From Promethearchaeota archaeon (GTDB lineage Archaea; Asgardarchaeota; Odinarchaeia; Odinarchaeales; JBHLKK01): a stretch of DNA of 19,276 nucleotides. Every line of letters begins with the position of its first letter. Within the stretch, counting starts at the first letter, position 1. The translations under genes were made by a program, and so were the position numbers. The stretch is taken from the NCBI GenBank assembly GCA_048939465.1, contig JBHLPL010000028.1, positions 1-19,276 on the forward strand, read 5' to 3'. The notes under the pieces are model-generated. The model did not search any database. It was not told where the DNA came from and saw only the letters and a list, made by a program, of their open reading frames with translations. Below, one piece after another: positions 2,144 through 18,935 of the stretch.

Positions 2144-2202
2144 ATCATCCTCCTTGAAGCATTTCTCTGCTGGAGATTTAGGAAATAATGGTCTGTGAAG
2201 CC

Positions 2203-2211
2203 TTTTAAATA
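2203..2211 (-). promoter_or_regulatory. TATA-box-like element, probably for alaXM
   Basis: Minus strand reads TATTTAAAA about 60 nt upstream of the alaXM GTG. The same AT run could also be read as a plus-strand TATA. Confidence 0.4.
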
Positions 2212-2253
2212 GATTGAAGAAACCTTTTTTTTAAGGTTACGGAAGTAAGGTTT

Positions 2254-2382
2254 TCACAGTCGCTCTATTCTCGCCCTGCGTCGGTCTTTCCCCTGATTCT
2301 TTCTTGATTGATAGCCGATAGCCGACTCAACGGAGGCGTGATACTGGCAGCCAGTGCAAGACCCGGTCGGCATCTGAGACAT
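2254..2382 (-). CDS. Candidate 42-aa small protein with C-x2-C-x2-H and a basic tail (MSQMPTGSCTGCQYHASVESAIGYQSRKNQGKDRRRARIERL); not in the ORF track
   Basis: Hand translation from ATG at 2382 to TGA at 2254. TTTAATATAAA (2417-2407, minus strand) lies at leaderless/short-leader promoter distance. No family recognised. Confidence 0.25.
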   Translation of the reverse strand: MSQMPTGSCTGCQYHASVESAIGYQSRKNQGKDRRRARIERL

Positions 2383-2638
2383 CTTTCAGCGCCCCTTCCT
2401 ACAGCCTTTATATTAAATCCCCCTTCAACATCATTAAATTGCCTGCTGATAGGGATCAGTATGTGTTTTTCGGACTCAAACATCCGCAGAATTTCCCTTG
2501 TTGTTCTGGTCGATGTATCATCCTCCTTTTGGGCATTTCGACAGACTATTATACATATAAAAAATATCGTTGATTCAGGTGACTGCAATTGTCGCATTTA
2601 GCCAAGCTATATCGCAAGAATTATCCTTAAGCATCAGA

Positions 2639-2650
2639 TTTTTATTTATG
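2639..2650 (+). promoter_or_regulatory. Possible TATA box of the hdr operon
   Basis: TTTTTATTTATG about 70 nt upstream of the hdrC ATG at 2722. An alternative AT-rich candidate lies at 2549-2566. Confidence 0.3.
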
Positions 2651-2721
2651 CAATGCCACAACTCATTAAACCACCAATTCTCCCTGTTTCCCTATCAAAC
2701 TATCTAGAAGTTGAGGTAAGA

Positions 2722-3252
2722 ATGGCTGAATTTAAGGACTCTGCGCCGAGATTGGTTAAACCAAAAGCTCAGCTTAAGGAGCATATAAGCAGAATGCTTG
2801 GCGGAGAACGACTCAAGGCCTGCTACTCATGTGGGGCATGTGTCGGGAACTGCCCTGTGGCCAGGATTTTGGACAGATTTAGGCCTCTGCGAATTATCCT
2901 AGAAACCAAGCGCGGATTGGAAGAAGAACTTGTGAAAGGAGAGCCTATTTGGGATTGCGCCTATTGCTTTATCTGCCAAGATGTATGCCCTCAACAGGTG
3001 AGTTTCCCAGATATTCTTTTTGCCATAAGAAATCTCGCTGCCAGAAAAGGCAACATACCTCAGGGATTCATGACCTTTTCTAGAAACGTCTACGATAGCG
3101 GACGATCCGTTCCTCTGGATGAGTTTATGCTGGAAGATAGGGAAGATTTGGGATTGCCTCAGTTAGAGAGTCCTATTCCGAAGAAAGCTCTATCTGATAT
3201 CCGGAAAATAATGAAAATCACGAACTTCAAGAAATTGATTAAACCAAAGTGA
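2722..3252 (+). CDS. hdrC: Heterodisulfide reductase subunit C (copy 1)
   Basis: CYSCGACVGNCP and IWDCAYCFICQDVCPQ (two 4Fe-4S motifs) followed by the HdrC-type AIRNLAARKG segment. Start moved from 2653 to the in-frame ATG at 2722, which has GAGGTAAG at 2713-2720. Confidence 0.92.
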   Translation: MAEFKDSAPRLVKPKAQLKEHISRMLGGERLKACYSCGACVGNCPVARILDRFRPLRIILETKRGLEEELVKGEPIWDCAYCFICQDVCPQQVSFPDILFAIRNLAARKGNIPQGFMTFSRNVYDSGRSVPLDEFMLEDREDLGLPQLESPIPKKALSDIRKIMKITNFKKLIKPK

Positions 3253-3265
3253 GGTTGATTACAGA

Positions 3266-4150
3266 TTGAGATATCTCTTCTTCCTGGGGTGTACTGCACC
3301 TACAAGAGTACAGGGTTATGAGCTTTCGACAAGAAAGGTCCTTCCGGCCTTGGGTGTAGAATTGGTGGATGAACCACTCTTCACTTGCTGTTCACCCGCT
3401 CCCATTATACCTTCAATCGATTTCTTGACAAGTCTTGCCATAACCGCGCGGAACCTTTGTATTGCTGAGGAAGCTGGATCAGATATCGTTACTCTCTGCA
3501 ATGGTTGTTATGGCAACCTGAGTACTGCGATTCATCAAATGGAACGTGAAGAAACCAGGGAGAAAGTGAACAGGATACTGGCTGAGATCGGCTATGAGTA
3601 TAAAGGGAAGGTCAAGGTTAAACATGTCACTCAAGTGCTTTTTGAAGATGTTGGTATCGAAAAGATTAAGGCGAGAGTCAAACGCCCCCTCCCACTTAGA
3701 ATTGGTGCTTATTACGGATGTCATCTAATACGACCTGAAGAAGCCTTGACTTTTGATTATTCGGAAGTCCCCACTAAACTTGATCAGATAGTGACTGCCT
3801 TGGGTGCCGAAAGCATTTGGTATGAATCTAAATTCGAATGCTGCGGGGGGACCTTAAGGGGGTTTAATGATGACATTTCTGTTGAGTTAGGACGACGAAA
3901 GCTTGTGAATCTAGATAAAGCAAATGTAGACTGTGTGGCAGTGACATGTCCGTTTTGCTTCCTGCAGTTTGATAGAGGTCAGGTTGCTATTACCGATAGG
4001 TACGGTGAAGAATACAACATCCCGATTTTCACGATAACTGAACTTATAGGTCTTGCTATGGGATATGATCCTACCGATCTGGGTATAAGACTTAAGGCGA
4101 TTGACGCAAGCAAGATTCTCGAAAGAATATTTCCCTCGGTGAGCGTATAA
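3266..4150 (+). CDS. hdrB: Heterodisulfide reductase subunit B (copy 1)
   Basis: Two CCG domains with all ten Cys and the GCH His (LGC, TCC, CNGC, YYGCH, CCGG, CPFC), plus ARN and QFDRGQ. TTG start with GAGGTTGA SD at 3251-3258. Confidence 0.94.
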   Translation: MRYLFFLGCTAPTRVQGYELSTRKVLPALGVELVDEPLFTCCSPAPIIPSIDFLTSLAITARNLCIAEEAGSDIVTLCNGCYGNLSTAIHQMEREETREKVNRILAEIGYEYKGKVKVKHVTQVLFEDVGIEKIKARVKRPLPLRIGAYYGCHLIRPEEALTFDYSEVPTKLDQIVTALGAESIWYESKFECCGGTLRGFNDDISVELGRRKLVNLDKANVDCVAVTCPFCFLQFDRGQVAITDRYGEEYNIPIFTITELIGLAMGYDPTDLGIRLKAIDASKILERIFPSVSV

Positions 4151-5035
4151 ATGTCTTGGCTCAAAACATCGAAGACTTTCACTGACACTGGTTTTCTGGT
4201 AACAGAACCAAGTTACACCTATGCAATCGAGTTAGAGTACTACAAAGAGATGTGTGCAGGTTGCGGTATGTGTATAGTTGCTTGTCCAAAGGGAGCAATT
4301 AAGATAAAAGATCAAGAGAAACTGATTCAGAAGACGACTGGTATTAATCTCATTGATATAGATGAAGAAAAATGCGTCAAATGTGGTATTTGCGCAGCAA
4401 CGTGTATTTTCAACGCGCTTAAGCTTAGACATAGAGACAATCTCGCTGAAGAAGAATACAGGATACCCGCGACAGAACTCGGGGTTTATCCAAGTTTTCA
4501 AACCACGGCGAAGGTTGAGCTGGAGAAATGTACCTTTTGCAAACTATGTGAAAAGATGTGTCCGAGAAAAGCAATTACAGTAATTCACAAAGAGAAAGTG
4601 GATATAAATTCCATTCTATGCATTGGCTGTGGTTGGTGTGAGTGGATTTGTCCTACGTCCGCCATAACGACTAGAAAATCCCTTACAGGAAGCATCAAAA
4701 TAAACCTGGAAGTCTGCAAAACTGATTGTGACAAGTGCGCCTCTGTCTGTCCAGCTGATGCCATCTACTCCAAATCTATTGCAGAATCGAAATTTGGCAA
4801 GGTCAAAACCAATGTTATTGAGAAGAAGATTCTGAAACAAGAGACTGAAAAGACGGTTCCATTGAGTGAGTTCTGTGTTTTGTGCGGGGCCTGTAAACAG
4901 GTCTGTCCAGTAGAAGAATGTATTGAAATCGAGAGGAAAAAAATCTCCGTCCCCAAACTACGCTCGGCAAAACTGTGGTCAAGAGTACAGGAGAAACTCC
5001 ATAAGGCCACTAGGGAGGCTGGGAGAGCTGAGTAA
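4151..5035 (+). CDS. Polyferredoxin with six 4Fe-4S motifs, FwdF-like
   Basis: Motifs CAGCGMCIVACP, CVKCGICAATCI, CTFCKLCEKMCP, CIGCGWCEWICP, CKTDCDKCASVCP and CVLCGACKQVCP. The linker (...GVYPSFQTTAKVELEKC) resembles FwdF. TAAATG junction with hdrB. Confidence 0.85.
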   Translation: MSWLKTSKTFTDTGFLVTEPSYTYAIELEYYKEMCAGCGMCIVACPKGAIKIKDQEKLIQKTTGINLIDIDEEKCVKCGICAATCIFNALKLRHRDNLAEEEYRIPATELGVYPSFQTTAKVELEKCTFCKLCEKMCPRKAITVIHKEKVDINSILCIGCGWCEWICPTSAITTRKSLTGSIKINLEVCKTDCDKCASVCPADAIYSKSIAESKFGKVKTNVIEKKILKQETEKTVPLSEFCVLCGACKQVCPVEECIEIERKKISVPKLRSAKLWSRVQEKLHKATREAGRAE

Positions 5036-5534
5036 ACGGAAGATTCTGGAAGTAAACGCGAAATTTCGAGAGAAGATCGCCAAACATATTAAAGAGGAGC
5101 TATTGACTGTCTGCAATCAATGCGGAACTTGCACGGGTTCATGTCCCGCAGCAAGGTTCTCCGATTCATTCAATCCCCGGAAAATCATAAGAGGCATAGT
5201 TTTAGGGTCGGATGATGAATTAGTTCGAGGGAATCCAATATGGATGTGTACAACGTGCCATTTTTGCTCTGAGAGATGTCCTCAGGGAATTGACGTTTCT
5301 GAAGGCATTATTGCATTGAGAAATCTGGCTGCTCAAGAAGGTAATGTTCCGGAAGATATCAAGAACGAAGTGGTCAATCTACTATCGGCTGGCGTTACCG
5401 TTCTGCCATCTCCCATGATTGAGAAAAGAAGAGACAAGTTAGGACTGCCCAGCCTACCTCGAGTCGATCTCGAGCAAGTACGAACTTTGCTTAGGGTCGC
5501 CGGTCTAGACAGACATCCGAAGGGGGACAAGTAA
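5028..5534 (+). CDS. hdrC: Heterodisulfide reductase subunit C (copy 2); start uncertain (CTG 5028 favoured over TTG 4923 or TTG 5103)
   Basis: CNQCGTCTGSCP and IWMCTTCHFCSERCPQGID, plus ALRNLAAQEG. The TTG at 4923 would overlap the polyferredoxin by 113 nt. GGGAGG at 5013-5018 sits 9 nt before the in-frame CTG at 5028. Confidence 0.88.
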   Translation: MSKRKILEVNAKFREKIAKHIKEELLTVCNQCGTCTGSCPAARFSDSFNPRKIIRGIVLGSDDELVRGNPIWMCTTCHFCSERCPQGIDVSEGIIALRNLAAQEGNVPEDIKNEVVNLLSAGVTVLPSPMIEKRRDKLGLPSLPRVDLEQVRTLLRVAGLDRHPKGDK

Positions 5535-6434
5535 ATGCTCAACTATGCTTTCTTTCCGGGATGCCTAATCTCTCGAAGATACCCTCAGATTGAACTTGCC
5601 ACCAGGAAAGTAATGGACAGGTTTGGTGTCAAGCTGATAAATATGAATGGAGCTAGCTGCTGCCCAGATCCTATCGGAATTAAATCAATCAATTCAAAAG
5701 CGTGGATGCTAGTTTCTGCCCGAAACCTCTGTATTGCAGAAGAGATGAAAAAAGATATTATGACAGTATGCAACGGCTGTTTTCTAACCCTCAAAACCAC
5801 GAATTTCATACTTAAGAAGAATTCAGCACTGAGACAAGAAATTAATGGATTCTTGGCCGAAGTGGACAAAGAGTTCAAAGGAATCATAAGAGTCAAACAC
5901 ATGTCAGAGATTCTTCATAAAGACCTTGGAATTAAAAGAATCAAAGAACTCATCAAACACCGGCTAAGCAACCTTGATGTTGCCGTTCACCATGGCTGTC
6001 ACCTAGTTATGCCGAATGATATGTTGGCCATTGATAACCCCGAACGGCCATATATACTTGATGAGCTTGTTGAGGTTACGGGAGCCAAAAGCGCGCAATA
6101 TCTTCACAAGAACATGTGTTGTGGTTATGGTACCTCCACAAATAGCAAGGAGACTTCTCTGGAAATAACAAAACTGAAGCTGTTTCAAATGCAGCGTGCA
6201 AGCGTTGACTGCATAACTCTGATGTGCCCCTCTTGTTTCACCCAATTTGACATGGGACAGATACAAATCAAAAGGATCTTCAAAGAATCATTTGACATAC
6301 CAGTAATTCACTACTCACAACTTCTTGGACTGGCCTTAGGCTTCCTACCCAAAGAATTAGGTACACATCTGAATTTGGTCAAAGTTGAGCCTGTCCTCGA
6401 GAAATTAGGAATGCTTGCATCAAATGGAGGTTAG
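5535..6434 (+). CDS. hdrB: Heterodisulfide reductase subunit B (copy 2)
   Basis: FFPGC, SCCP, ARN, CNGC, HHGCH, CCGYG, CPSC and QFDMGQ. TAAATG junction with hdrC copy 2. Confidence 0.94.
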   Translation: MLNYAFFPGCLISRRYPQIELATRKVMDRFGVKLINMNGASCCPDPIGIKSINSKAWMLVSARNLCIAEEMKKDIMTVCNGCFLTLKTTNFILKKNSALRQEINGFLAEVDKEFKGIIRVKHMSEILHKDLGIKRIKELIKHRLSNLDVAVHHGCHLVMPNDMLAIDNPERPYILDELVEVTGAKSAQYLHKNMCCGYGTSTNSKETSLEITKLKLFQMQRASVDCITLMCPSCFTQFDMGQIQIKRIFKESFDIPVIHYSQLLGLALGFLPKELGTHLNLVKVEPVLEKLGMLASNGG

Positions 6435-6440
6435 GCATCA

Positions 6441-7763
6441 ATGAGCAAAAGAAAACCATCAGTATTAGTAATTGGGGGGGGAATAGCTGGAATTCATTCC
6501 GCCCTGAAGCTGGCGGATCTAGGTGTTGATGTCTACCTAGTTGAAAAAGAGGCAAGTCTAGGCGGAACTGCCGCCAAACTAGGTAAAGTATTTCCTACCG
6601 ATGATTGTGGTGTATGTGTTACTGCGTCTGCTAGCCAGTTCGCCACAAGAACTGGATACAGAAGATGTCTCTATCGCACGAATTTTACTGAACTATCAAA
6701 TTTGACTATTCTAACATTAAGTAGGATTCAGAACGTATTGAAAAAGGAAGGAGTCTTCAGTGTAAGAGTAAAACAAGATCCCAGATATGTTAACGAGAGG
6801 GATTGCATTGCATGTAACCTGTGTTCTGAAATATGTCCCGTGGAGGTAACTGATGAATATTGTCTGGGCTTGACGAAAAGAAAAGCAATTTACCTGCCAT
6901 TTATTCAAGCTATACCTTACACATATTTGGTTGACTCTGAAAGCTGTACCCGATGCAATAAATGCGTGGAAGAGTGTCCCACAAACGCTATTAATCTGGA
7001 CCAGCAAGCGAGAGAGTTTACGCTTGTAGTGGACAGAATCGTAGTTGCAACGGGATTCAAGGAAATAGATCCCAGTCACATCAGCGAGTATGGTTACGGC
7101 CTATATGAAAATGTAATTACCCAGATGCAGCTGGCAAGCTTTCTAGACCCGACAGGTCCGACTGAAGGGAAGATTGTTACACCAAAAACAGGGAAAGCCG
7201 CAAAGGATGTTCTCATGATTTTATGTGTAGATTCTCGAAATAAGTCGAACTGGTATTGCTCCAGAATCTGCTGTACCTATGCCATAAAACATGCGATCCT
7301 CCTCAAGCAATCTGGAGTAAATGTAACTATATCGTATATTGATGTTCGAACCATGGGACAATACGAAGAGTATCTTGAGAAAGCTAGGAAAGAAGGAGTC
7401 AGATTTGTGCATGGCCGTGTAAGCACAGTAGAAGAAGATCCCACAGATCACAGGCTTTTGGCACAACTCGAAGATGTCGATAATGCCAAGGTCCTCGAGA
7501 TTCCGTTTGATCTCGTTGTGTTGACTCCACGTCTTGCCCCCTCAGACGGAACCACTGAGATAATCAGAATCCTCGGTTTACCAACTGAAGCTGGAGGCTT
7601 TGTAAAACCATTATCGGATCAGTTTGACTCCACCAGGACTAGCCAGAAAGGCATATTTGTATGCGGTACAGCCCAACAACCGAAAGACATACCAGAATCC
7701 GTAACTGATGCTGGTACCGTCGCAATGAACATTCTTCATTCTTTAATGAAGAATAAGGCATAA
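6441..7763 (+). CDS. hdrA: Short HdrA-like flavoprotein (FAD domain + inserted 2x4Fe-4S domain; no N-terminal domain, no C-terminal ferredoxin); QmoA-like layout
   Basis: Begins at the Rossmann motif VIGGGIAG...VYLVEK. Contains VFPTDDCGVC, CIACNLCSEICP/CTRCNKCVEECP, VVATG, LCVDSR...YCSRICCTYAIK and GIFVCGTAQQPKDIPES. GGAGGT SD at 6426-6431. Confidence 0.9.
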   Translation: MSKRKPSVLVIGGGIAGIHSALKLADLGVDVYLVEKEASLGGTAAKLGKVFPTDDCGVCVTASASQFATRTGYRRCLYRTNFTELSNLTILTLSRIQNVLKKEGVFSVRVKQDPRYVNERDCIACNLCSEICPVEVTDEYCLGLTKRKAIYLPFIQAIPYTYLVDSESCTRCNKCVEECPTNAINLDQQAREFTLVVDRIVVATGFKEIDPSHISEYGYGLYENVITQMQLASFLDPTGPTEGKIVTPKTGKAAKDVLMILCVDSRNKSNWYCSRICCTYAIKHAILLKQSGVNVTISYIDVRTMGQYEEYLEKARKEGVRFVHGRVSTVEEDPTDHRLLAQLEDVDNAKVLEIPFDLVVLTPRLAPSDGTTEIIRILGLPTEAGGFVKPLSDQFDSTRTSQKGIFVCGTAQQPKDIPESVTDAGTVAMNILHSLMKNKA

Positions 7764-7767
7764 GGGG

Positions 7768-7797
7768 GAGAAGGAGAATGAGAAGGAGAATGAGAAG
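7768..7797 (+). repeat. 12-bp tandem repeat GAGAAGGAGAAT x2 plus partial third copy (GAGAAG)
   Basis: Read directly: 7768-7779, 7780-7791 and 7792-7797. It creates two in-frame SD+ATG units (ATG 7778 and ATG 7790). Confidence 0.9.
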
Positions 7798-9922
7798 AAG
7801 CAAAGTAGCACTGTTTTTGTGCACCTGTGGAAGAACTCTATCCAAGACCATAGATTTTGAGCAGTTAGTCAACTTCTCCTCAGAGCTTGAAGATGTAGAA
7901 GTAGTTAGAGTTCATGATACCCTATGTCTGGATAAGGGACTTGACTTCTTCACAAAGACCTTAAAGGATGAAAAAATAGGTGCTGCAGTCATCGCTGCGT
8001 GCTCCCCTCAAATCTATGAAGAGAGATTTCTAAAAGCAATTCATAAATCTAAGTTGGGCACCCTCATCGATTTTGCTAACATCCGAGAACAATCAGCCTG
8101 GGTACATAGCTCCACCCCTCAGAAAGCTACAAACAAAGCCAAAGTAATGATCGCATCATCTATTGAAAAGGTAAAAGGAATGAAAGAAGAAAAAGCTGAG
8201 AAGAGAAAGGTCAATAAAAGCGCACTGATTGTTGGGGGAGGAATTGCAGGCTTAAACGCCGCCCTAGATATTGCAGGACAAGGATTTAATGTAATCATAG
8301 TTGAAAAGACCTCCAGCATCGGTGGCTTATCCAGATTGTTTGAAGAGACGGAAATCAGAGATTTAGTTAGTCAGAGTATGGATGATGTAAAGAAAAACAG
8401 GAGAATTAGGATCTTCAGTAATTCCCTCGTGAAAGATGTGAAAGGCGTTCCTGGGGCTTATGATGTAGTCATTGCCGGAACTTCTGAATCTGAGAAAGAA
8501 CCGGTTGAATTGCAAGTAGGTGCAATACTCCTGGCAACTGGTTTGCGGGAATATGACCCATCTTCAATTCCGAAACTGAAATACGGGAAACACAAGAACA
8601 TCATAACAGGTCTCCAGGTATCTCAGATGATGCACCCGGATGGGGCAACTGGTGGCAAGATAATTGTCCCCTCGACAAAGAAAAAACCCAAACGAGTGAT
8701 GTTCATCCAGTGTGTTGGCTCGCGCGACTCCCGACACAAATGGTATTGCTCAAGCATATGCTGCAATTATGCCCTCAAGCATGCCAACAGACTCAACGAA
8801 CTGGGAATAGAAACTTTTGTTAATTATGTGGATATCCGCACACCCTATCTTGATGAGAAAAGATACATTGACGCTTTGAAGAAAGGGACTATATTCCTGA
8901 AAGGAGAGGTCAAAGGCATAAGAGAAAATGCCGATGAACTCACAGTTTCCATAGATGACACTTTGACAGGGGATAAACTTGATATAAACTGCGATATGGT
9001 TGTCCTAAACCCAGCTTTGGTCCCGACAGAAGAAGCAGAAACTCTTTCCAGACTTCTAGGTATTGGTCTCGATTCTGCTGGATTCTATCAAACTGTCTAT
9101 CCCAAGGTAATTACTGCCGAAAGCAAATCTAGAGGGTTGTTCATATGTGGCTCCGCTTTCAGCCCCATGGATATACAGCAGACCCTTGTGCATGCGCATG
9201 CGGCAGCTCTGGAAGCCGTAGAATTCCTTCGAAGAAGCACAATTGAACCTCGAAAGACTATACCAGAACTTGATGAGGAGCTCTGCGACGCCTGTAGGGC
9301 TTGTGAATCAATGTGTGGTTTTAACGCTGTAAAAGTTGAGGCAGTCGAAGCTGGACGAGAAGTCGCGAAACTCAGATTGGAGAACTGTGTTGGGTGTGGT
9401 GTTTGCGCAGCCGTTTGTCCAACAAAGGCAATCCAGCTCAGGAACTATGATCAAGAAACCCTTTTTGCCCAGATCGAAACCGTTGTGAAAACGGCCTCAG
9501 ATATTGATGCAAGCGAACCAGTAATCTTGGGACTATATTGTAATGAATGCGCATACTGTAGCGCTGATATGGCTGGGAGATTGCATAAAGAATACTCCTC
9601 AAATATATATCCCATTACTGTGCCGTGTGCTGGAAGAATTTCAGTTCTTGAGATTCTGAAAGCTCTTACCGAAGGCGCCGATGGGGTGTTTATTGCAGCT
9701 TGCCCAAGCAAAAGCTGCCACTACCCCCCTGCTACAGACAGTGCTCGATTAATGATTGATTTCACAAAAGAAATCTTAGATGCACTTGGCGTTGATGAGA
9801 GAAGAGTAGAGATCTTTAATATGGTCTCGTATGACCCAATCAAATTTGCTGAATCTGCCAATCTAATGGCTGAGAGAGTTACGAAACTTGGCCCGAATCC
9901 TGTGAAGAATGCAACAGAATGA
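7778..9922 (+). CDS. hdrA: HdrA-MvhD fusion (N-terminal domain + FAD domain + C-terminal 2x4Fe-4S + MvhD 2Fe-2S domain); QmoB-like layout; start 7778 or 7790
   Basis: FLCTCG, AACSP, NIREQSAWVH, IVGGGIAG, LLATG, QCVGSR...CSSICC, CDACRACESMCG/CVGCGVCAAVCP, then MvhD-type YCNECAY, VPCAGRI, GADGVFIAACPSKSCHY, LGPNPV. Lacks the FPTxDC loop and the inserted ferredoxin domain. Confidence 0.92.
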   Translation: MRRRMRRSKVALFLCTCGRTLSKTIDFEQLVNFSSELEDVEVVRVHDTLCLDKGLDFFTKTLKDEKIGAAVIAACSPQIYEERFLKAIHKSKLGTLIDFANIREQSAWVHSSTPQKATNKAKVMIASSIEKVKGMKEEKAEKRKVNKSALIVGGGIAGLNAALDIAGQGFNVIIVEKTSSIGGLSRLFEETEIRDLVSQSMDDVKKNRRIRIFSNSLVKDVKGVPGAYDVVIAGTSESEKEPVELQVGAILLATGLREYDPSSIPKLKYGKHKNIITGLQVSQMMHPDGATGGKIIVPSTKKKPKRVMFIQCVGSRDSRHKWYCSSICCNYALKHANRLNELGIETFVNYVDIRTPYLDEKRYIDALKKGTIFLKGEVKGIRENADELTVSIDDTLTGDKLDINCDMVVLNPALVPTEEAETLSRLLGIGLDSAGFYQTVYPKVITAESKSRGLFICGSAFSPMDIQQTLVHAHAAALEAVEFLRRSTIEPRKTIPELDEELCDACRACESMCGFNAVKVEAVEAGREVAKLRLENCVGCGVCAAVCPTKAIQLRNYDQETLFAQIETVVKTASDIDASEPVILGLYCNECAYCSADMAGRLHKEYSSNIYPITVPCAGRISVLEILKALTEGADGVFIAACPSKSCHYPPATDSARLMIDFTKEILDALGVDERRVEIFNMVSYDPIKFAESANLMAERVTKLGPNPVKNATE

Positions 9923-9935
9923 GGAAGGAAAGATA

Positions 9936-10418
9936 TTGCTTACAAAAAGGGAACACCTCGTCAGATTGCTGCAGAAACTGGCAATACGGCAGCCAAAGGC
10001 TCCCGTAGTTACGCCCGAAAAACTTGAAGGGTTTATTACCATACTAGTCAAATCCACAAGATGTACGTTATGCAATAAGTGTGTGGAAATATGTCCAGAG
10101 GATGCTCTTTCTCCCCTCAAAATCTTTGATCTTGCCTCAGTTCTGAAGTCTCCCTATCCAAAAGACTTGAGAGCGAAGAACAGATTGACACTATATGAAT
10201 TATTGCAGAAATTGGCACGTGAAACCCCAAAGGGTCAAATCATCGTGCCTGAGGGGCTAGAAGGGTTCGGGGACATAGAATTCCGCCCGGAGAAATGTAC
10301 TGCTTGCGACAAGTGCAAAGAAGTGTGTCCTGAAGATGCTATTGAGGTCCTACCACAATTCGACCTTCCAAGAGCATTGGAAAACTTGGCAAAACGCCCA
10401 AAGGAGGCCGAAGATTGA
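9936..10418 (+). CDS. Ferredoxin-like protein built from two ~78-aa repeats, each with one 4Fe-4S motif; start TTG 9936 (or ATG 9909)
   Basis: CTLCNKCVEICPEDAL and CTACDKCKEVCPEDAI are 234 nt apart. GAGGAAGG SD at 9921-9928 precedes the in-frame TTG at 9936. Confidence 0.85.
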   Translation: MLTKREHLVRLLQKLAIRQPKAPVVTPEKLEGFITILVKSTRCTLCNKCVEICPEDALSPLKIFDLASVLKSPYPKDLRAKNRLTLYELLQKLARETPKGQIIVPEGLEGFGDIEFRPEKCTACDKCKEVCPEDAIEVLPQFDLPRALENLAKRPKEAED

Positions 10419-12415
10419 ACAAAAAAGTCAATAGCAAAGGCTCAAACGAAAATGCAAGAATAGGAGTTTTTGTATGCCATTGCGGTTCCAATATTGCTGG
10501 TGTAATTGACGTAGGAGATGTGGCCAAATATTCGAAGAGTCTACCTCACGTAGCTTTCGCCAAAGACTACATATTCATGTGTTCCGAAAGTGGGCAAAAG
10601 CTAATCAAGGATTCCATAGGTAAGCACGGACTCAATCGAATTGTTGTAGCAGCTTGTTCACCAAAGCTACACGGACCAACATTTAAGCGTTGCATATCTG
10701 AAGCTGGGCTGAATCCGTATTTTCTTGAGATGCCAAACATTAGAGAGCAATGTAGCTGGGCACATATGAACGAATCCAAAAAGGCTACTGAGAAGGCTAA
10801 AACGTTGATTCGTGGAGTTGCCGAGAAAGCTGCTCTGCTTGAGCCTGTTGAGAGTATGAGGGCACCTGTCACAAAAGCGGCTTTAATCATTGGGGGAGGG
10901 ATTTCTGGAATTCAGGCGGCTTTAGATTTGGCTGATGCTGGCATCAGAGTATACTTGGTTGAAAGATCCCCCTCGATCGGCGGAAACATGGCTCGACTCG
11001 AGAAGACATTTCCTACTGACGACTGCGCCATGTGCATACTCTCTCCAAAAATGAATGATGTGAGAGCCCATCCTAGCATAGAGCTTCTTTCTTACAGCGA
11101 AGTGATAGATGTTTCAGGATACATAGGAAATTTCAACGTTAGTGTCCTCAAAAAGCCAAGATTTGTTGATGCCCTGAAATGTACAGGTTGTGGAGTATGT
11201 GCTGAAGTGTGTCCTGTAAAGGTACCAGCAGAATGGGAGCTGAGAATGGGTATGAGATCGGCCGCATATATCCCGTTCCCTCAATCGGTGCCGCTTACTC
11301 ATGTCATTGATCGAGAGAAATGCATAGATTGTGGCCTGTGCGAAGTATCATGTCCGTCAGGTGCTATTGATTTTGGTCAAATGCCAGAGGAGGTCAAACT
11401 GGAGGTAGGTGTGATAATTGTAGCAACTGGTTGGCAACAGTGGGATCCATCTCCAATGAGGGAATACGGGTACGGAATCTATCCAAACGTTATTACACAA
11501 TTACAACTTGCTCAAATGCTTGAATCTGTTGGTCCGACCAATGGCAAAATAGTTCGGGCTGATGGAAAGCCCGCAAAAAGAATAACAATGATACAGTGTG
11601 TAGGCTCCAGAGACGAGAAATACAACTCATATTGCTCGAGCGTATGTTGTATGGCAGCAATCAAGAATGCGCAGCTGGTAAAACTTGAGCACGTACGCGA
11701 TGCCGAAATAACAATATGCTACATAGATATTCGGGCTTATCGGAAGGACTTTGAGGAATACTACAGTCGTTCAAGAGAATACGGCATCGATTTCATACGC
11801 GGTAATGTTTCAAAAGTCTATGAAGACCCTAATACAGGCTTGATGAGAATCCAAGTATACGACACATTGCTGGACAGACTGATAGAACTTGAGTCAGATA
11901 TTGTTGTACTCTCTACGGCAACAATTCCTTCTGAAGGAACCTCAGAATTGGCCCAAAAGCTGGGAATAGACATTGGACCCGAAGGATTCTTGAAAGAGCT
12001 ACATCCTAAACTCAAACCGGTGAACAGCAAAATAGAAGGCATTTTCATATGTGGAGCGGCGCAAGGACCAAAAGACATTCCCGATTCGATAGCTCAGGCG
12101 AGCGCGGCGGCAGCCAGGGCAAATATACCCCTCGCCAAAGGATATGTCATAATAGACCTAATGGTGGCTGACGTGAACAAAGAGCTTTGTACGGCCTGCG
12201 CCATATGCGTGGATGTATGTCCTTTTGCAGCTTTGGAGATGAATGAAGAGGAGAATGTTGCTGAAGTCAATCCGCTGAAATGCAAGGGATGTGGGACTTG
12301 CTGCGGAGCCTGTCCTACAGGAGCTATCCAACTGGCCCACTATCGCGACGATCAAATCATCGCCCAGGTAAAGGGTATATTGGCATCATCGAAGGAAGTC
12401 TCGGAGGAAATCTAG
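10415..12415 (+). CDS. hdrA: Full-length heterodisulfide reductase subunit A
   Basis: GVFVCHCG, MCS, AACSP, NIREQCSW, IIGGGISG, KTFPTDDCAMCILSPKM, inserted ferredoxin (CTGCGVCAEVCP/CIDCGLCEVSCP), QCVGSR...CSSVCC and C-terminal CTACAICVDVCP/CKGCGTCCGACP. TTG start with AGGAGG SD. Confidence 0.96.
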   Translation: MNKKVNSKGSNENARIGVFVCHCGSNIAGVIDVGDVAKYSKSLPHVAFAKDYIFMCSESGQKLIKDSIGKHGLNRIVVAACSPKLHGPTFKRCISEAGLNPYFLEMPNIREQCSWAHMNESKKATEKAKTLIRGVAEKAALLEPVESMRAPVTKAALIIGGGISGIQAALDLADAGIRVYLVERSPSIGGNMARLEKTFPTDDCAMCILSPKMNDVRAHPSIELLSYSEVIDVSGYIGNFNVSVLKKPRFVDALKCTGCGVCAEVCPVKVPAEWELRMGMRSAAYIPFPQSVPLTHVIDREKCIDCGLCEVSCPSGAIDFGQMPEEVKLEVGVIIVATGWQQWDPSPMREYGYGIYPNVITQLQLAQMLESVGPTNGKIVRADGKPAKRITMIQCVGSRDEKYNSYCSSVCCMAAIKNAQLVKLEHVRDAEITICYIDIRAYRKDFEEYYSRSREYGIDFIRGNVSKVYEDPNTGLMRIQVYDTLLDRLIELESDIVVLSTATIPSEGTSELAQKLGIDIGPEGFLKELHPKLKPVNSKIEGIFICGAAQGPKDIPDSIAQASAAAARANIPLAKGYVIIDLMVADVNKELCTACAICVDVCPFAALEMNEEENVAEVNPLKCKGCGTCCGACPTGAIQLAHYRDDQIIAQVKGILASSKEVSEEI

Positions 12416-12844
12416 GTGAGTGAAGAAAAAGAGTTCGAACCGATAATCCTAGCTTTCTGCTGCAATGAGTGCTCATACGCTGCCGCGGATCTGGCTGGTA
12501 CAAGTCGTCTCCAATATCCGACAAACGTCCGAATAATTTTGATACCATGCACAGGAAGAATCGATCTGACCTATATTTTTGAGTCATTTGTCAACGGTGC
12601 TGATGGCGTTCTCGTAGAAGGATGCCTAAAGGACCAATGCCATTATGTCGACGGGAATTATAGAGCTGAAAGACGTGTCGAATTTGCAAAAAGGATACTC
12701 GACGAGATCGGTATAGGTAATGAAAGGCTGGAAATGCATTTCATCTCGGCTGGTATGCCTGTGAAGTTCGCCGAGGTAGCCAGGGAATTTGTCAGAAAAA
12801 TCAAAAAACTAGGTCCAAATCCCCTTAAATTGCGGAGCAGGTAA
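12416..12844 (+). CDS. mvhD: MvhD-type 2Fe-2S subunit (methyl-viologen-reducing hydrogenase delta)
   Basis: FCCNECSYAAAD, IPCTGRID, GADGVLVEGCLKDQCHYVDGN and LGPNP. GTG start abuts the hdrA TAG. GGAGG at 12403-12407. Confidence 0.95.
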   Translation: MSEEKEFEPIILAFCCNECSYAAADLAGTSRLQYPTNVRIILIPCTGRIDLTYIFESFVNGADGVLVEGCLKDQCHYVDGNYRAERRVEFAKRILDEIGIGNERLEMHFISAGMPVKFAEVAREFVRKIKKLGPNPLKLRSR

Positions 12845-13004
12845 CAATTCTAACAAGAAAAAAAAGCTAAGCGGTGTCATTTTCTTCATCGAATTAATTC
12901 TCAGTGCAGGTCAGTCTCAGCATCTGTACTTAGAGATAGGCTAGAAGCCTTAAGAATTTTTTGCTAATACGAACGGAGCGCTTCTGGGGCCTCTTCCGTC
13001 GGGC

Positions 13005-18765: not shown

Positions 18766-18873
18766 TTGAACTTGGTTCATAAAAGACTGGATGTTCCCCT
18801 GATAGCTGTAACCTACGAGGAATCACAGGAATCACTCAACAAGTACTTCCGTGAATATTTCCCCGAAAGCTGG
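18766..18873 (+). pseudogene. Duplicated internal fragment of the downstream DUF99 gene (LNLVHKRLDVPLIAVTYEESQESLNKYFREYFPESW)
   Basis: 18766-18842 is identical to 19200-19276. The continuation to 18873 reads in frame as DUF99-like sequence (KYFREYFP). The right boundary near the G7 run at 18872-18878 is inferred. Confidence 0.75.
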
Positions 18874-18935
18874 GGGGGAGTTAACATAGGAAGGAATACA
18901 AAGAGTGGTGTCCTTAAGATATAGGAGCTGAGACC

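Follow-up and report, generated by a model that had tools for sequence, protein, structure and literature searches.

The hdrA genes of the window

The stretch of DNA analysed here (the window, 19,276 nucleotides, contig JBHLPL010000028.1 of a Promethearchaeota archaeon) carries an Hdr cluster of ten co-directional, tightly packed genes at positions 2653-12844, flanked by housekeeping genes (uvrB, kinase, alaX, lhr, aldolase, dehydrogenase). Two adjacent genes of this cluster, hdrA1 and hdrA2, are the main subject of the present study. An earlier note on the same DNA had described them as HdrA paralogues with complementary domain losses, whose products would form a QmoA/QmoB-like heterodimer. 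Both open reading frames (ORFs) are intact, lie on the + strand 14 nt apart and are in different frames. Their features and the third hdrA gene of the cluster are listed below (FAD, flavin adenine dinucleotide; TrxR, thioredoxin-reductase-like).

6441-7763, + strand: hdrA1, short HdrA of 440 aa with FAD/TrxR core, Cys loop and inserted ferredoxin
6591-6617, + strand: hdrA1 loop F51-PTDD-C56-GV-C59, corresponding to Cys194/Cys197 in the M. wolfeii HdrA and Cys59/Cys62 in BamE
6780-7004, + strand: hdrA1 inserted 2x[4Fe-4S] ferredoxin domain, residues 114-188
7778-9922, + strand: hdrA2, long HdrA-MvhD fusion of 714 aa with N-terminal domain, FAD/TrxR core, C-terminal ferredoxin and MvhD
7796-8173, + strand: hdrA2 N-terminal Fe-S domain, residues 7-132, with the invariant C15, C17, C50 and C75
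9260-9505, + strand: hdrA2 C-terminal 2x[4Fe-4S] ferredoxin domain, residues 495-576
9512-9907, + strand: hdrA2 fused MvhD ([2Fe-2S]) domain, residues 579-710
10415-12415, + strand: hdrA3, canonical four-domain HdrA of 666 aa with the loop FPTDDCAMC

The two genes are separate in the environment as well. The DNA is present in mangrove and sediment metagenome runs of several studies, no RNA run being listed for it, and the hdrA1-hdrA2 junction is bridged by independent metagenome assemblies from three studies, with two genes retained. In two of the four runs compared, a T7761C variant changes the hdrA1 stop codon from TAA to CAA and extends the protein by 6 residues; the stop then lies at 7779-7781 and overlaps the ATG of hdrA2 as ATGA. 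Such a stop/start overlap is a classic arrangement for translational coupling. A stop at 7761-7763 or at 7779-7781 was found in every assembly compared, and HdrA1 and HdrA2 are not one polypeptide.

Domain architecture of HdrA1 and HdrA2

HdrA1 could be aligned only to approx. residues 145-560 of the solved HdrA chains (654-658 aa; E-values 5e-100 to 2e-75), a span which corresponds to the TrxR domain and the inserted ferredoxin. The protein begins at the FAD motif and has neither the N-terminal domain nor the C-terminal ferredoxin. Its loop FPTDDC56GVC59 aligns on KTFPTNDC194SIC197 of the M. wolfeii HdrA, and C59 is thus the counterpart of Cys197 in 5ODC. In case of HdrA2 two blocks (residues 3-232 and 237-570) were aligned with the solved chains and the inserted ferredoxin of about 75 residues was skipped. 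At the position of the Cys loop HdrA2 has LSRLFEETEIRDL, with no cysteine and no FPxxDCxxC motif. Its MvhD domain was recognized as PF02662 (residues 583-705, E-value 2e-32).

A domain scan, which used as queries six domains from the window's own canonical HdrA (hdrA3) and MvhD, gave the same picture: TrxRa-insFd-TrxRb for HdrA1, Nterm-TrxRa-TrxRb-CFd-MvhD for HdrA2 and the full set for HdrA3. All four domains and the Cys197-type loop stand together in one subunit only in hdrA3, neither in hdrA1 nor in hdrA2. Both the structure alignment and the scan therefore bear out the domain contents given in the earlier note for the 440-aa protein (FAD domain, FPTDDC loop and inserted ferredoxin, no N-terminal domain or C-terminal ferredoxin) and for the 714-aa protein (N-terminal and FAD domains, C-terminal ferredoxin and MvhD, no loop or inserted ferredoxin), and the complementary domain losses are confirmed. 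The further statement that the two proteins together supply one copy of every peripheral module holds in the window, but not in all relatives. Since the long subunit of Baldrarchaeia and of Hel_GB_A has retained an inserted ferredoxin, the one-of-each state of the window is a more reduced form.

The cofactor sites are kept in both proteins. The cluster-binding cysteines conserved in relatives are C56, C59, two CxxCxxCxxxC motifs and C262/C273/C277/C278 in HdrA1, and C15/C17/C50/C75, C312/C324/C328/C329, two CxxCxxCxxxC motifs and five cysteines of MvhD in HdrA2. The FAD motif GGGxAG is present in both, and in the relative alignments of both the GGGIAG, the following E, the GG and the C-terminal G...P motifs are invariant.

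Pairing of short and long hdrA genes

Loci were collected through similarity to the short type: 87 around HdrA relatives from metagenomes and species-representative genomes, and 19 short-type loci from genomes of the window's own phylum. Every HdrA-like ORF of the fetched loci was classified by the domain scan. In 33 of the 38 distinct short-type genes a partner with an N-terminal domain was found downstream within 2.5 kb, with a median gap of about 2 nt and often with overlap, and 32 of these 33 partners have no Cys loop. The remaining five short-type genes include three at contig ends and two without a partner, so that the pairing was not refuted by a common occurrence of either gene alone. 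In the opposite direction, a short gene stands upstream of 35 of the 38 long genes without a loop, a count that is not independent since the loci were found via the short type.

The fetched loci also contain single proteins of 1000-1180 aa in which a short-type unit is fused to a long-type unit in the order seen in the window. Four fusions from Asgard archaea (Helarchaeota, Sifarchaeum, Thorarchaeota and Promethearchaeia; 1151-1179 aa) include MvhD, and their length is approximately the sum of the window proteins (440 + 714 aa). The fusions always join short to long units and never either of these to a canonical unit. When two genes are fused in the order in which they stand separately elsewhere, this is commonly taken as evidence that their products work together.

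One protein of the window's clade has an intermediate architecture. It is encoded at L008:1-2070 (Promethearchaeota DZ3M.366) and has no N-terminal domain, but combines the Cys loop and the inserted ferredoxin with the C-terminal ferredoxin and MvhD; its neighbours lie beyond the short contig.

Model of the complex and the proposed heterodimer

HdrA2 residues 1-490 were modelled with HdrA1, each given as an alignment, in three runs and with three controls. The earlier note had asked for such a multimer prediction, and binding is supported: the ipSAE was 0.86 in the three runs as compared with 0.00 for the best of the 3 controls, although this score may reflect the resemblance of the pair to solved HdrA homodimers. 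The score mark used is reached by 58 of 80 solved complexes and by 2 of 110 mismatched pairs. The run-to-run contact agreement was at least 84% and the partner pLDDT at least 83. In the model the interface runs from TrxR domain to TrxR domain, and the N-terminal Cys site of HdrA2 (residues 17-20, 47-52 and 75-86) stands against the inserted ferredoxin and the post-loop segment of HdrA1 (residues 78-84, 120-127, 156-160 and 180-181).

The short-type HdrAs of the window's clade have an insertion of about 14 residues just past the Cys loop (window 6618-6680, HdrA1 residues 60-80). It contains an extra conserved cysteine in the consensus GxRxCxYR (C76 in HdrA1) that canonical HdrAs do not have. 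The HdrA1 segment after this insertion contacts the partner N-terminal domain in the complex model.

In the canonical (HdrA)2 both protomers contribute to each bifurcation unit: a mobile arm from one protomer, which consists of the N- and C-terminal HdrA domains and the MvhD-like subunit, serves the FAD', HA4' and HA5' of the partner HdrA', and the partner gives the FAD, the TrxR cluster and the inserted ferredoxin (PMC12350162). Besides the HdrA3 homodimer, HdrA1:HdrA2 is the sole combination in the window in which every N-terminal cluster site is matched with a loop of the partner and no loop is orphaned. The complementary domains, the conserved adjacency, the same-order fusions and the complex model all support the asymmetric arrangement, and we consider it quite probable that the products of hdrA1 and hdrA2 join as halves of one asymmetric HdrA heterodimer, which would correspond to the BamE-like fused dimers in unfused form.

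We infer the direction of electron flow, the substrates and the role of the FAD of HdrA2 as follows. HdrA1 would be the core, with the FAD and its N5 lysine K283, the TrxR cluster, the CxxC loop and the inserted ferredoxin, and HdrA2 would be the arm (N-terminal domain, C-terminal ferredoxin and fused MvhD) carried on a TrxR scaffold. Since the arm comes only from HdrA2 and the core only from HdrA1, one complete bifurcation unit would remain. An electron donor would reduce HdrA2's MvhD together with its C-terminal ferredoxin, from where electrons would reach the FAD of HdrA1. The high-potential electron would then travel via the TrxR cluster to HdrC, HdrB and a disulfide. The low-potential one would take the arm cluster(s), then the inserted ferredoxin of HdrA1, and end on the polyferredoxin or ferredoxin that the gene cluster encodes.

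The distribution of the flavin lysine is in line with such a division of roles. The lysine after the CC motif is invariant in the short type (24/24), in the first halves of fusions (37/37), in canonical HdrAs (34/34) and in QmoA (2/2), and variable in the long type (18/23) and in the motif-bearing second halves of fusions (18/35). In the fused proteins of the fetched loci the loop cysteines and the lysine stand at positions corresponding to those of BamE and to C56/C59 and K283 of HdrA1.

Several observations weigh against this arrangement or against parts of it. The model does not tell the heterodimer from homodimers or from pairs with HdrA3, and the HdrA1 loop residues 56-59 are absent from its confident contacts. 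Two of the 38 short-type genes (at L098 and L110) are partnerless. HdrA2 retains the flavin lysine K334, the four cysteines of the TrxR cluster and the FAD motifs, and because of these its FAD may still be active and the enzyme less one-way than proposed. Moreover, there are two hdrCB pairs for three HdrA proteins, which would allow more than one stoichiometry and, taken with K334 and the TrxR-cluster cysteines of HdrA2, a second, non-bifurcating route. No donor enzyme is encoded in the ten-gene cluster. The one-way electron path proposed earlier is thus favoured by the single complete unit in the domain content but is weakened by the sites kept in HdrA2 and by the two hdrCB pairs.

In another arrangement HdrA1 and HdrA2 would each pair with HdrA3, or swap subunits with it, and thereby tune one Hdr complex. 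The three hdrA genes of the cluster run in one direction with translational coupling, and their TrxR cores are closest relatives in the tree described below, so that the interfaces may remain compatible. The HdrA3 loop could serve the N-terminal site of HdrA2, and the HdrA1 loop that of HdrA3. However, HdrA1:HdrA3 leaves the HdrA3 loop without a site in HdrA1, and HdrA2:HdrA3 leaves the N-terminal site of HdrA3 without a loop. The fusions, as described above, do not involve canonical units. Furthermore, a short form of the cluster in Helarchaeota (short, long-MvhD, ferredoxin, hdrC, hdrB) has no canonical HdrA, therefore the pair does not need HdrA3, and short and long genes stand without a canonical HdrA in many other loci as well. 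Pairing with HdrA3 is thus an unlikely alternative to the HdrA1:HdrA2 heterodimer.

Phylogeny of the TrxR cores

Trees of the TrxR core were built in a quick version (173 rows) and in a careful version (80 rows, LG+C20, ultrafast bootstrap); HdrA sequences of anaerobic methanotrophic archaea (ANME) were not included. In the maximum likelihood (ML) trees the short and long types of the window come out as sisters (95/90) and share a clade with the canonical HdrA beside them (96/86). QmoA and QmoB are sisters of each other (100/98), apart from the window's pair, and many tandem or fused HdrA forms make up two other large clades. This topology suggests that the split HdrA arose more than once, which we take as a lead since the approximately unbiased (AU) tests are not decisive. 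They did not reject trees in which the short or long type of the window joins the main short/fused or long/fused clades (p 0.080 and 0.138), nor trees that unite QmoA with the short type (p 0.151) or QmoB with the long type (p 0.374). An independent origin of the pair, favoured by the ML trees, is consequently not claimed here, as the AU tests (p 0.08-0.37) reject no alternative.

The long-type TrxR core is the fastest evolving of the three. The terminal branch lengths of the cores are 0.86 for the long, 0.56 for the short and 0.23 for the canonical type, and the identities to the orthologues of L001, a metagenome contig with the same cluster, are 45%, 56% and 76%, respectively.

Comparison with known systems

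The idea of an asymmetric HdrA heterodimer has already been published (PMC9012536, PMC10504309, bioRxiv 10.64898/2026.04.10.717634). Tandem hdrA genes in which the N-terminal domain and Cys197 are complementary were reported by Chadwick et al. (2022), who explicitly proposed a symmetry-breaking heterodimer; the tandem pairs of ANME are HdrA5/6 and HdrA12/13, and fused forms are HdrA3/4 and the Moorella HdrA (PMC9012536). The window resembles these tandem pairs in having two adjacent co-directional hdrA genes, one with the N-terminal domain and without the loop and the other conversely, and in keeping the FAD-binding residues in both copies. It differs in its host, an Asgard archaeon in whose genome (91% complete, 1.96 Mb in 152 contigs) mcrA was not found. 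Among named relatives the Lhr helicase of the host is nearest to those of a Promethearchaeota archaeon (85%) and an Odinarchaeia archaeon (51%), so that the host probably belongs in Odinarchaeia or close to them. Unlike the large tandem and fused clades, the window pair groups with its own canonical HdrA in the ML tree, a placement for which the AU tests are not decisive.

The similarity to the Qmo proteins, which the earlier note had pointed out, could be confirmed with QmoA and QmoB from the qmoC loci of two Desulfobacterota genomes. In these QmoA (417-425 aa) and QmoB (748-778 aa) are encoded between aprA and qmoC, and the domain order of QmoA equals that of HdrA1 and the order of QmoB that of HdrA2 with MvhD. 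The pair could then be a true Qmo-type module (QmoAB-HdrBC) that feeds APS (adenosine 5'-phosphosulfate) reductase or another dissimilatory sulfur enzyme. Neukirchen et al. (2023) described QmoAB-HdrBC variants and a 'type II QmoAB' nearer to HdrA in organisms without Dsr or Apr (PMC10504309), and in Gram-positive sulfate reducers qmoAB genes are known to be linked to hdrCB in place of qmoC (Ramos 2012, PMC3333476; PMC10504309). A common clade with QmoA or QmoB is left unrejected by the AU tests. On the other side, the ML tree places QmoA and QmoB in a clade of their own away from the window's pair, and the loop of QmoA is of the CxxxC type (FPKLCPPTC), not the CxxC of the window (FPTxDCxxC). 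Family profile searches of the 91%-complete genome gave no match for aprA (TIGR02061), no match for dsrA at the family cut-off, and for qmoC (NF038018) a best score of 57 bits versus a cut-off of 300, those matches being hdrC genes. The absence of aprA and qmoC noted earlier for the window thus extends to the 91% of the genome that is covered, and we know of no Asgard archaeon that is a sulfate reducer. A dissimilatory sulfur function of this kind appears very improbable. The linkage of the pair to HdrBC and to an adjacent canonical hdrA-mvhD, in turn, is seen directly, as hdrCB genes and hdrA3-mvhD belong to the same cluster.

A close analogy to the proposed HdrA1:HdrA2 heterodimer is offered by BamE, the fused HdrA dimer of class II benzoyl-CoA reductase, the structure of which was solved by cryo-EM in a 2026 preprint. 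Its first TrxR unit contains the bifurcating FAD (Lys280 at N5) and the Cys59-Cys62 pair, while its second FAD is without bifurcation features and was judged structural (bioRxiv 10.64898/2026.04.10.717634). As in the window, a short-type unit is followed by a long-type unit, the Cys pair and the flavin lysine are in the first unit, and the second unit is accompanied by the arm domains and an MvhD-type adaptor. In BamE only the first FAD bifurcates, and HdrA1 would be its counterpart by analogy. The differences are that BamE is one polypeptide, whereas the window has two genes; that the MvhD of the window is fused to the long subunit and the partners are HdrBC, not the HdrD-like BamD; that the second unit of BamE has no bifurcation lysine, whereas HdrA2 has K334; and that no BamB/C or BamGHI genes are present in the window system. 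The canonical HdrA homodimer of the MvhAGD-HdrABC and Fdh/Elp-Hdr complexes (PDB 5ODC, 7BKB, 8RVU, 9SFI; PMC12350162) shares the fold, the cofactor motifs, the dimerisation through TrxR domains and the construction of the bifurcation unit across protomers, but has four domains per protomer and two equivalent units, as opposed to the one unit proposed for the window pair.

The present finding confirms published ideas and opens no new one. Its additions are modest: the Asgard setting, a conserved ten-gene cluster with a repeat ferredoxin, a clean 10.7-kb insertion/deletion difference from a congener, and an unproven hint of independent origin. Asymmetric HdrA dimers appear to be a common design for flavin-based electron-bifurcating enzymes outside methanogens, and the window provides a clean case without fusion from the Asgard archaea, a group in which the Hdr complexes show high expression but have no known disulfide substrate (PMC11291895). 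The two-gene version with MvhD on the arm subunit would be a handy system to identify the bifurcating flavin and to study the function of the arm. Should the pair indeed have arisen independently, the loss of one bifurcation unit would have been favoured repeatedly and would not be a single historical accident.

The ten-gene cluster and its gain or loss

The other genes of the cluster and the segment in which it lies are the following; hdrC1, hdrB1, the polyferredoxin gene and hdrB2 were assigned by domain or family matches and the 10.7-kb segment by contig comparison.

2653-3252, + strand: hdrC1
3266-4150, + strand: hdrB1, with two CCG domains
4151-5035, + strand: FwdF-like polyferredoxin of 294 aa
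4923-5534, + strand: hdrC2, start uncertain
5535-6434, + strand: hdrB2
9909-10418, + strand: two-motif ferredoxin of 169 aa with an internal tandem repeat, overlapping both neighbour genes
12416-12844, + strand: free-standing mvhD, 142 aa
2170-12854, no strand: 10.7-kb segment with the whole ten-gene cluster, replaced by 46 bp in a congener

The start of hdrC2 is uncertain because 113 nt of its ORF lie inside the polyferredoxin gene and no ATG, GTG or TTG is found shortly past the polyferredoxin stop.

The same order of ten genes was found in the JGI metagenome contig L001 and in the Baldrarchaeia loci L002 and L093. The Hdr cluster is thus conserved in Asgard archaea, which is new here. A homologue of the 169-aa ferredoxin directly follows the long HdrA in L001, L002/L093 and L004; the one of L094 is close by on the opposite strand. 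Each half of this ferredoxin consists of a helical lead and a CxxCxxCxxxCP motif. In one Asgard family (L101:9634-11895 and L104:9342-11657) the ferredoxin repeat domain makes up the C-terminal end of an approx. 755-aa protein rich in winged-helix-like regions, the gene of which stands right after a short/long HdrA pair.

The contig of a congener (L112, GCA_048939565.1) is collinear with the window at approx. 80% nucleotide identity, with 46 bp replacing positions 2170-12854. The absent segment comprises the whole ten-gene cluster and about 480 bp upstream, and this clean replacement in a collinear contig indicates that the cluster was gained or lost as one piece. No target-site duplications or repeats were obvious by eye at the edges of the segment, where no systematic search was made. 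In two more genomes of the genus (78% and 82% complete) orthologues were found neither for the short nor for the canonical HdrA.

The dispensability of the whole cluster in the congener and the fast evolution of hdrA1 and hdrA2, which exceeds that of the third HdrA copy in the cluster, would be expected if one or both genes were decaying duplicates of hdrA3 without a function of their own. Against this, both frames are intact, the cofactor motifs are invariant across relatives at 33-56% identity from several Asgard classes, and dozens of loci, as well as the fusions, show the same losses of domains. Decay is hardly credible as an explanation of the domain losses, and the two genes are better understood as halves of a heterodimer.

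A wider scenario can be put forward only tentatively, and we regard it as doubtful. The Asgard pair may be a duplicate of the adjacent canonical HdrA and a third convergent origin after QmoAB and the BamE/ANME type; the cluster may encode one two-stage machine, in which an asymmetric HdrA1:HdrA2 core would be coupled to a symmetric HdrA3-MvhD module by way of the 169-aa repeat ferredoxin; and the 10.7-kb segment may pass as a whole from one Asgard lineage to another.

Other observations

Among full clusters, that of L001 is the one most closely related to the window's; there metF and metV (methylene-tetrahydrofolate reductase, DUF5981) are situated divergently upstream (L001:4144-5743), and an FrhB/FdhB-like gene follows mvhD (L001:16365-17534). 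These neighbours hint at a methylene-tetrahydrofolate or F420 link, without a counterpart in the window. A functional link to methylene-tetrahydrofolate reductase was considered and is kept as a lead only, since the metF of the window's genome is on another contig with unrelated neighbours.

The genome encodes a fourth HdrA, which has 790 aa and is fused to MvhD; the next gene is for an MvhB-like polyferredoxin (contig C16:22586-26200; L114:4586-8199). On this contig a molybdopterin-oxidoreductase-like gene is divergent upstream of the fourth HdrA, and the large subunit of a [NiFe] hydrogenase is encoded about 20 kb away.

A scan of the cluster for sigma-70 promoters and terminators, which is ill-suited to archaea, gave counts at or below the shuffled expectation. 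None of the three HdrAs of the window has an in-frame TGA. Many Asgard HdrA frames of about 630-650 aa (genomes G014, G016, G024, G034 and others) contain one in-frame TGA, which is consistent with the selenocysteine HdrA reported for Asgard archaea (PMC11227280).

A second difference between the window and the congener is a segment of about 3.9 kb in L112:11609-15535, absent from window positions 18766-18895, which encodes a rubredoxin-fused thiamine pyrophosphate (TPP) enzyme and a TIP49-like ATPase.

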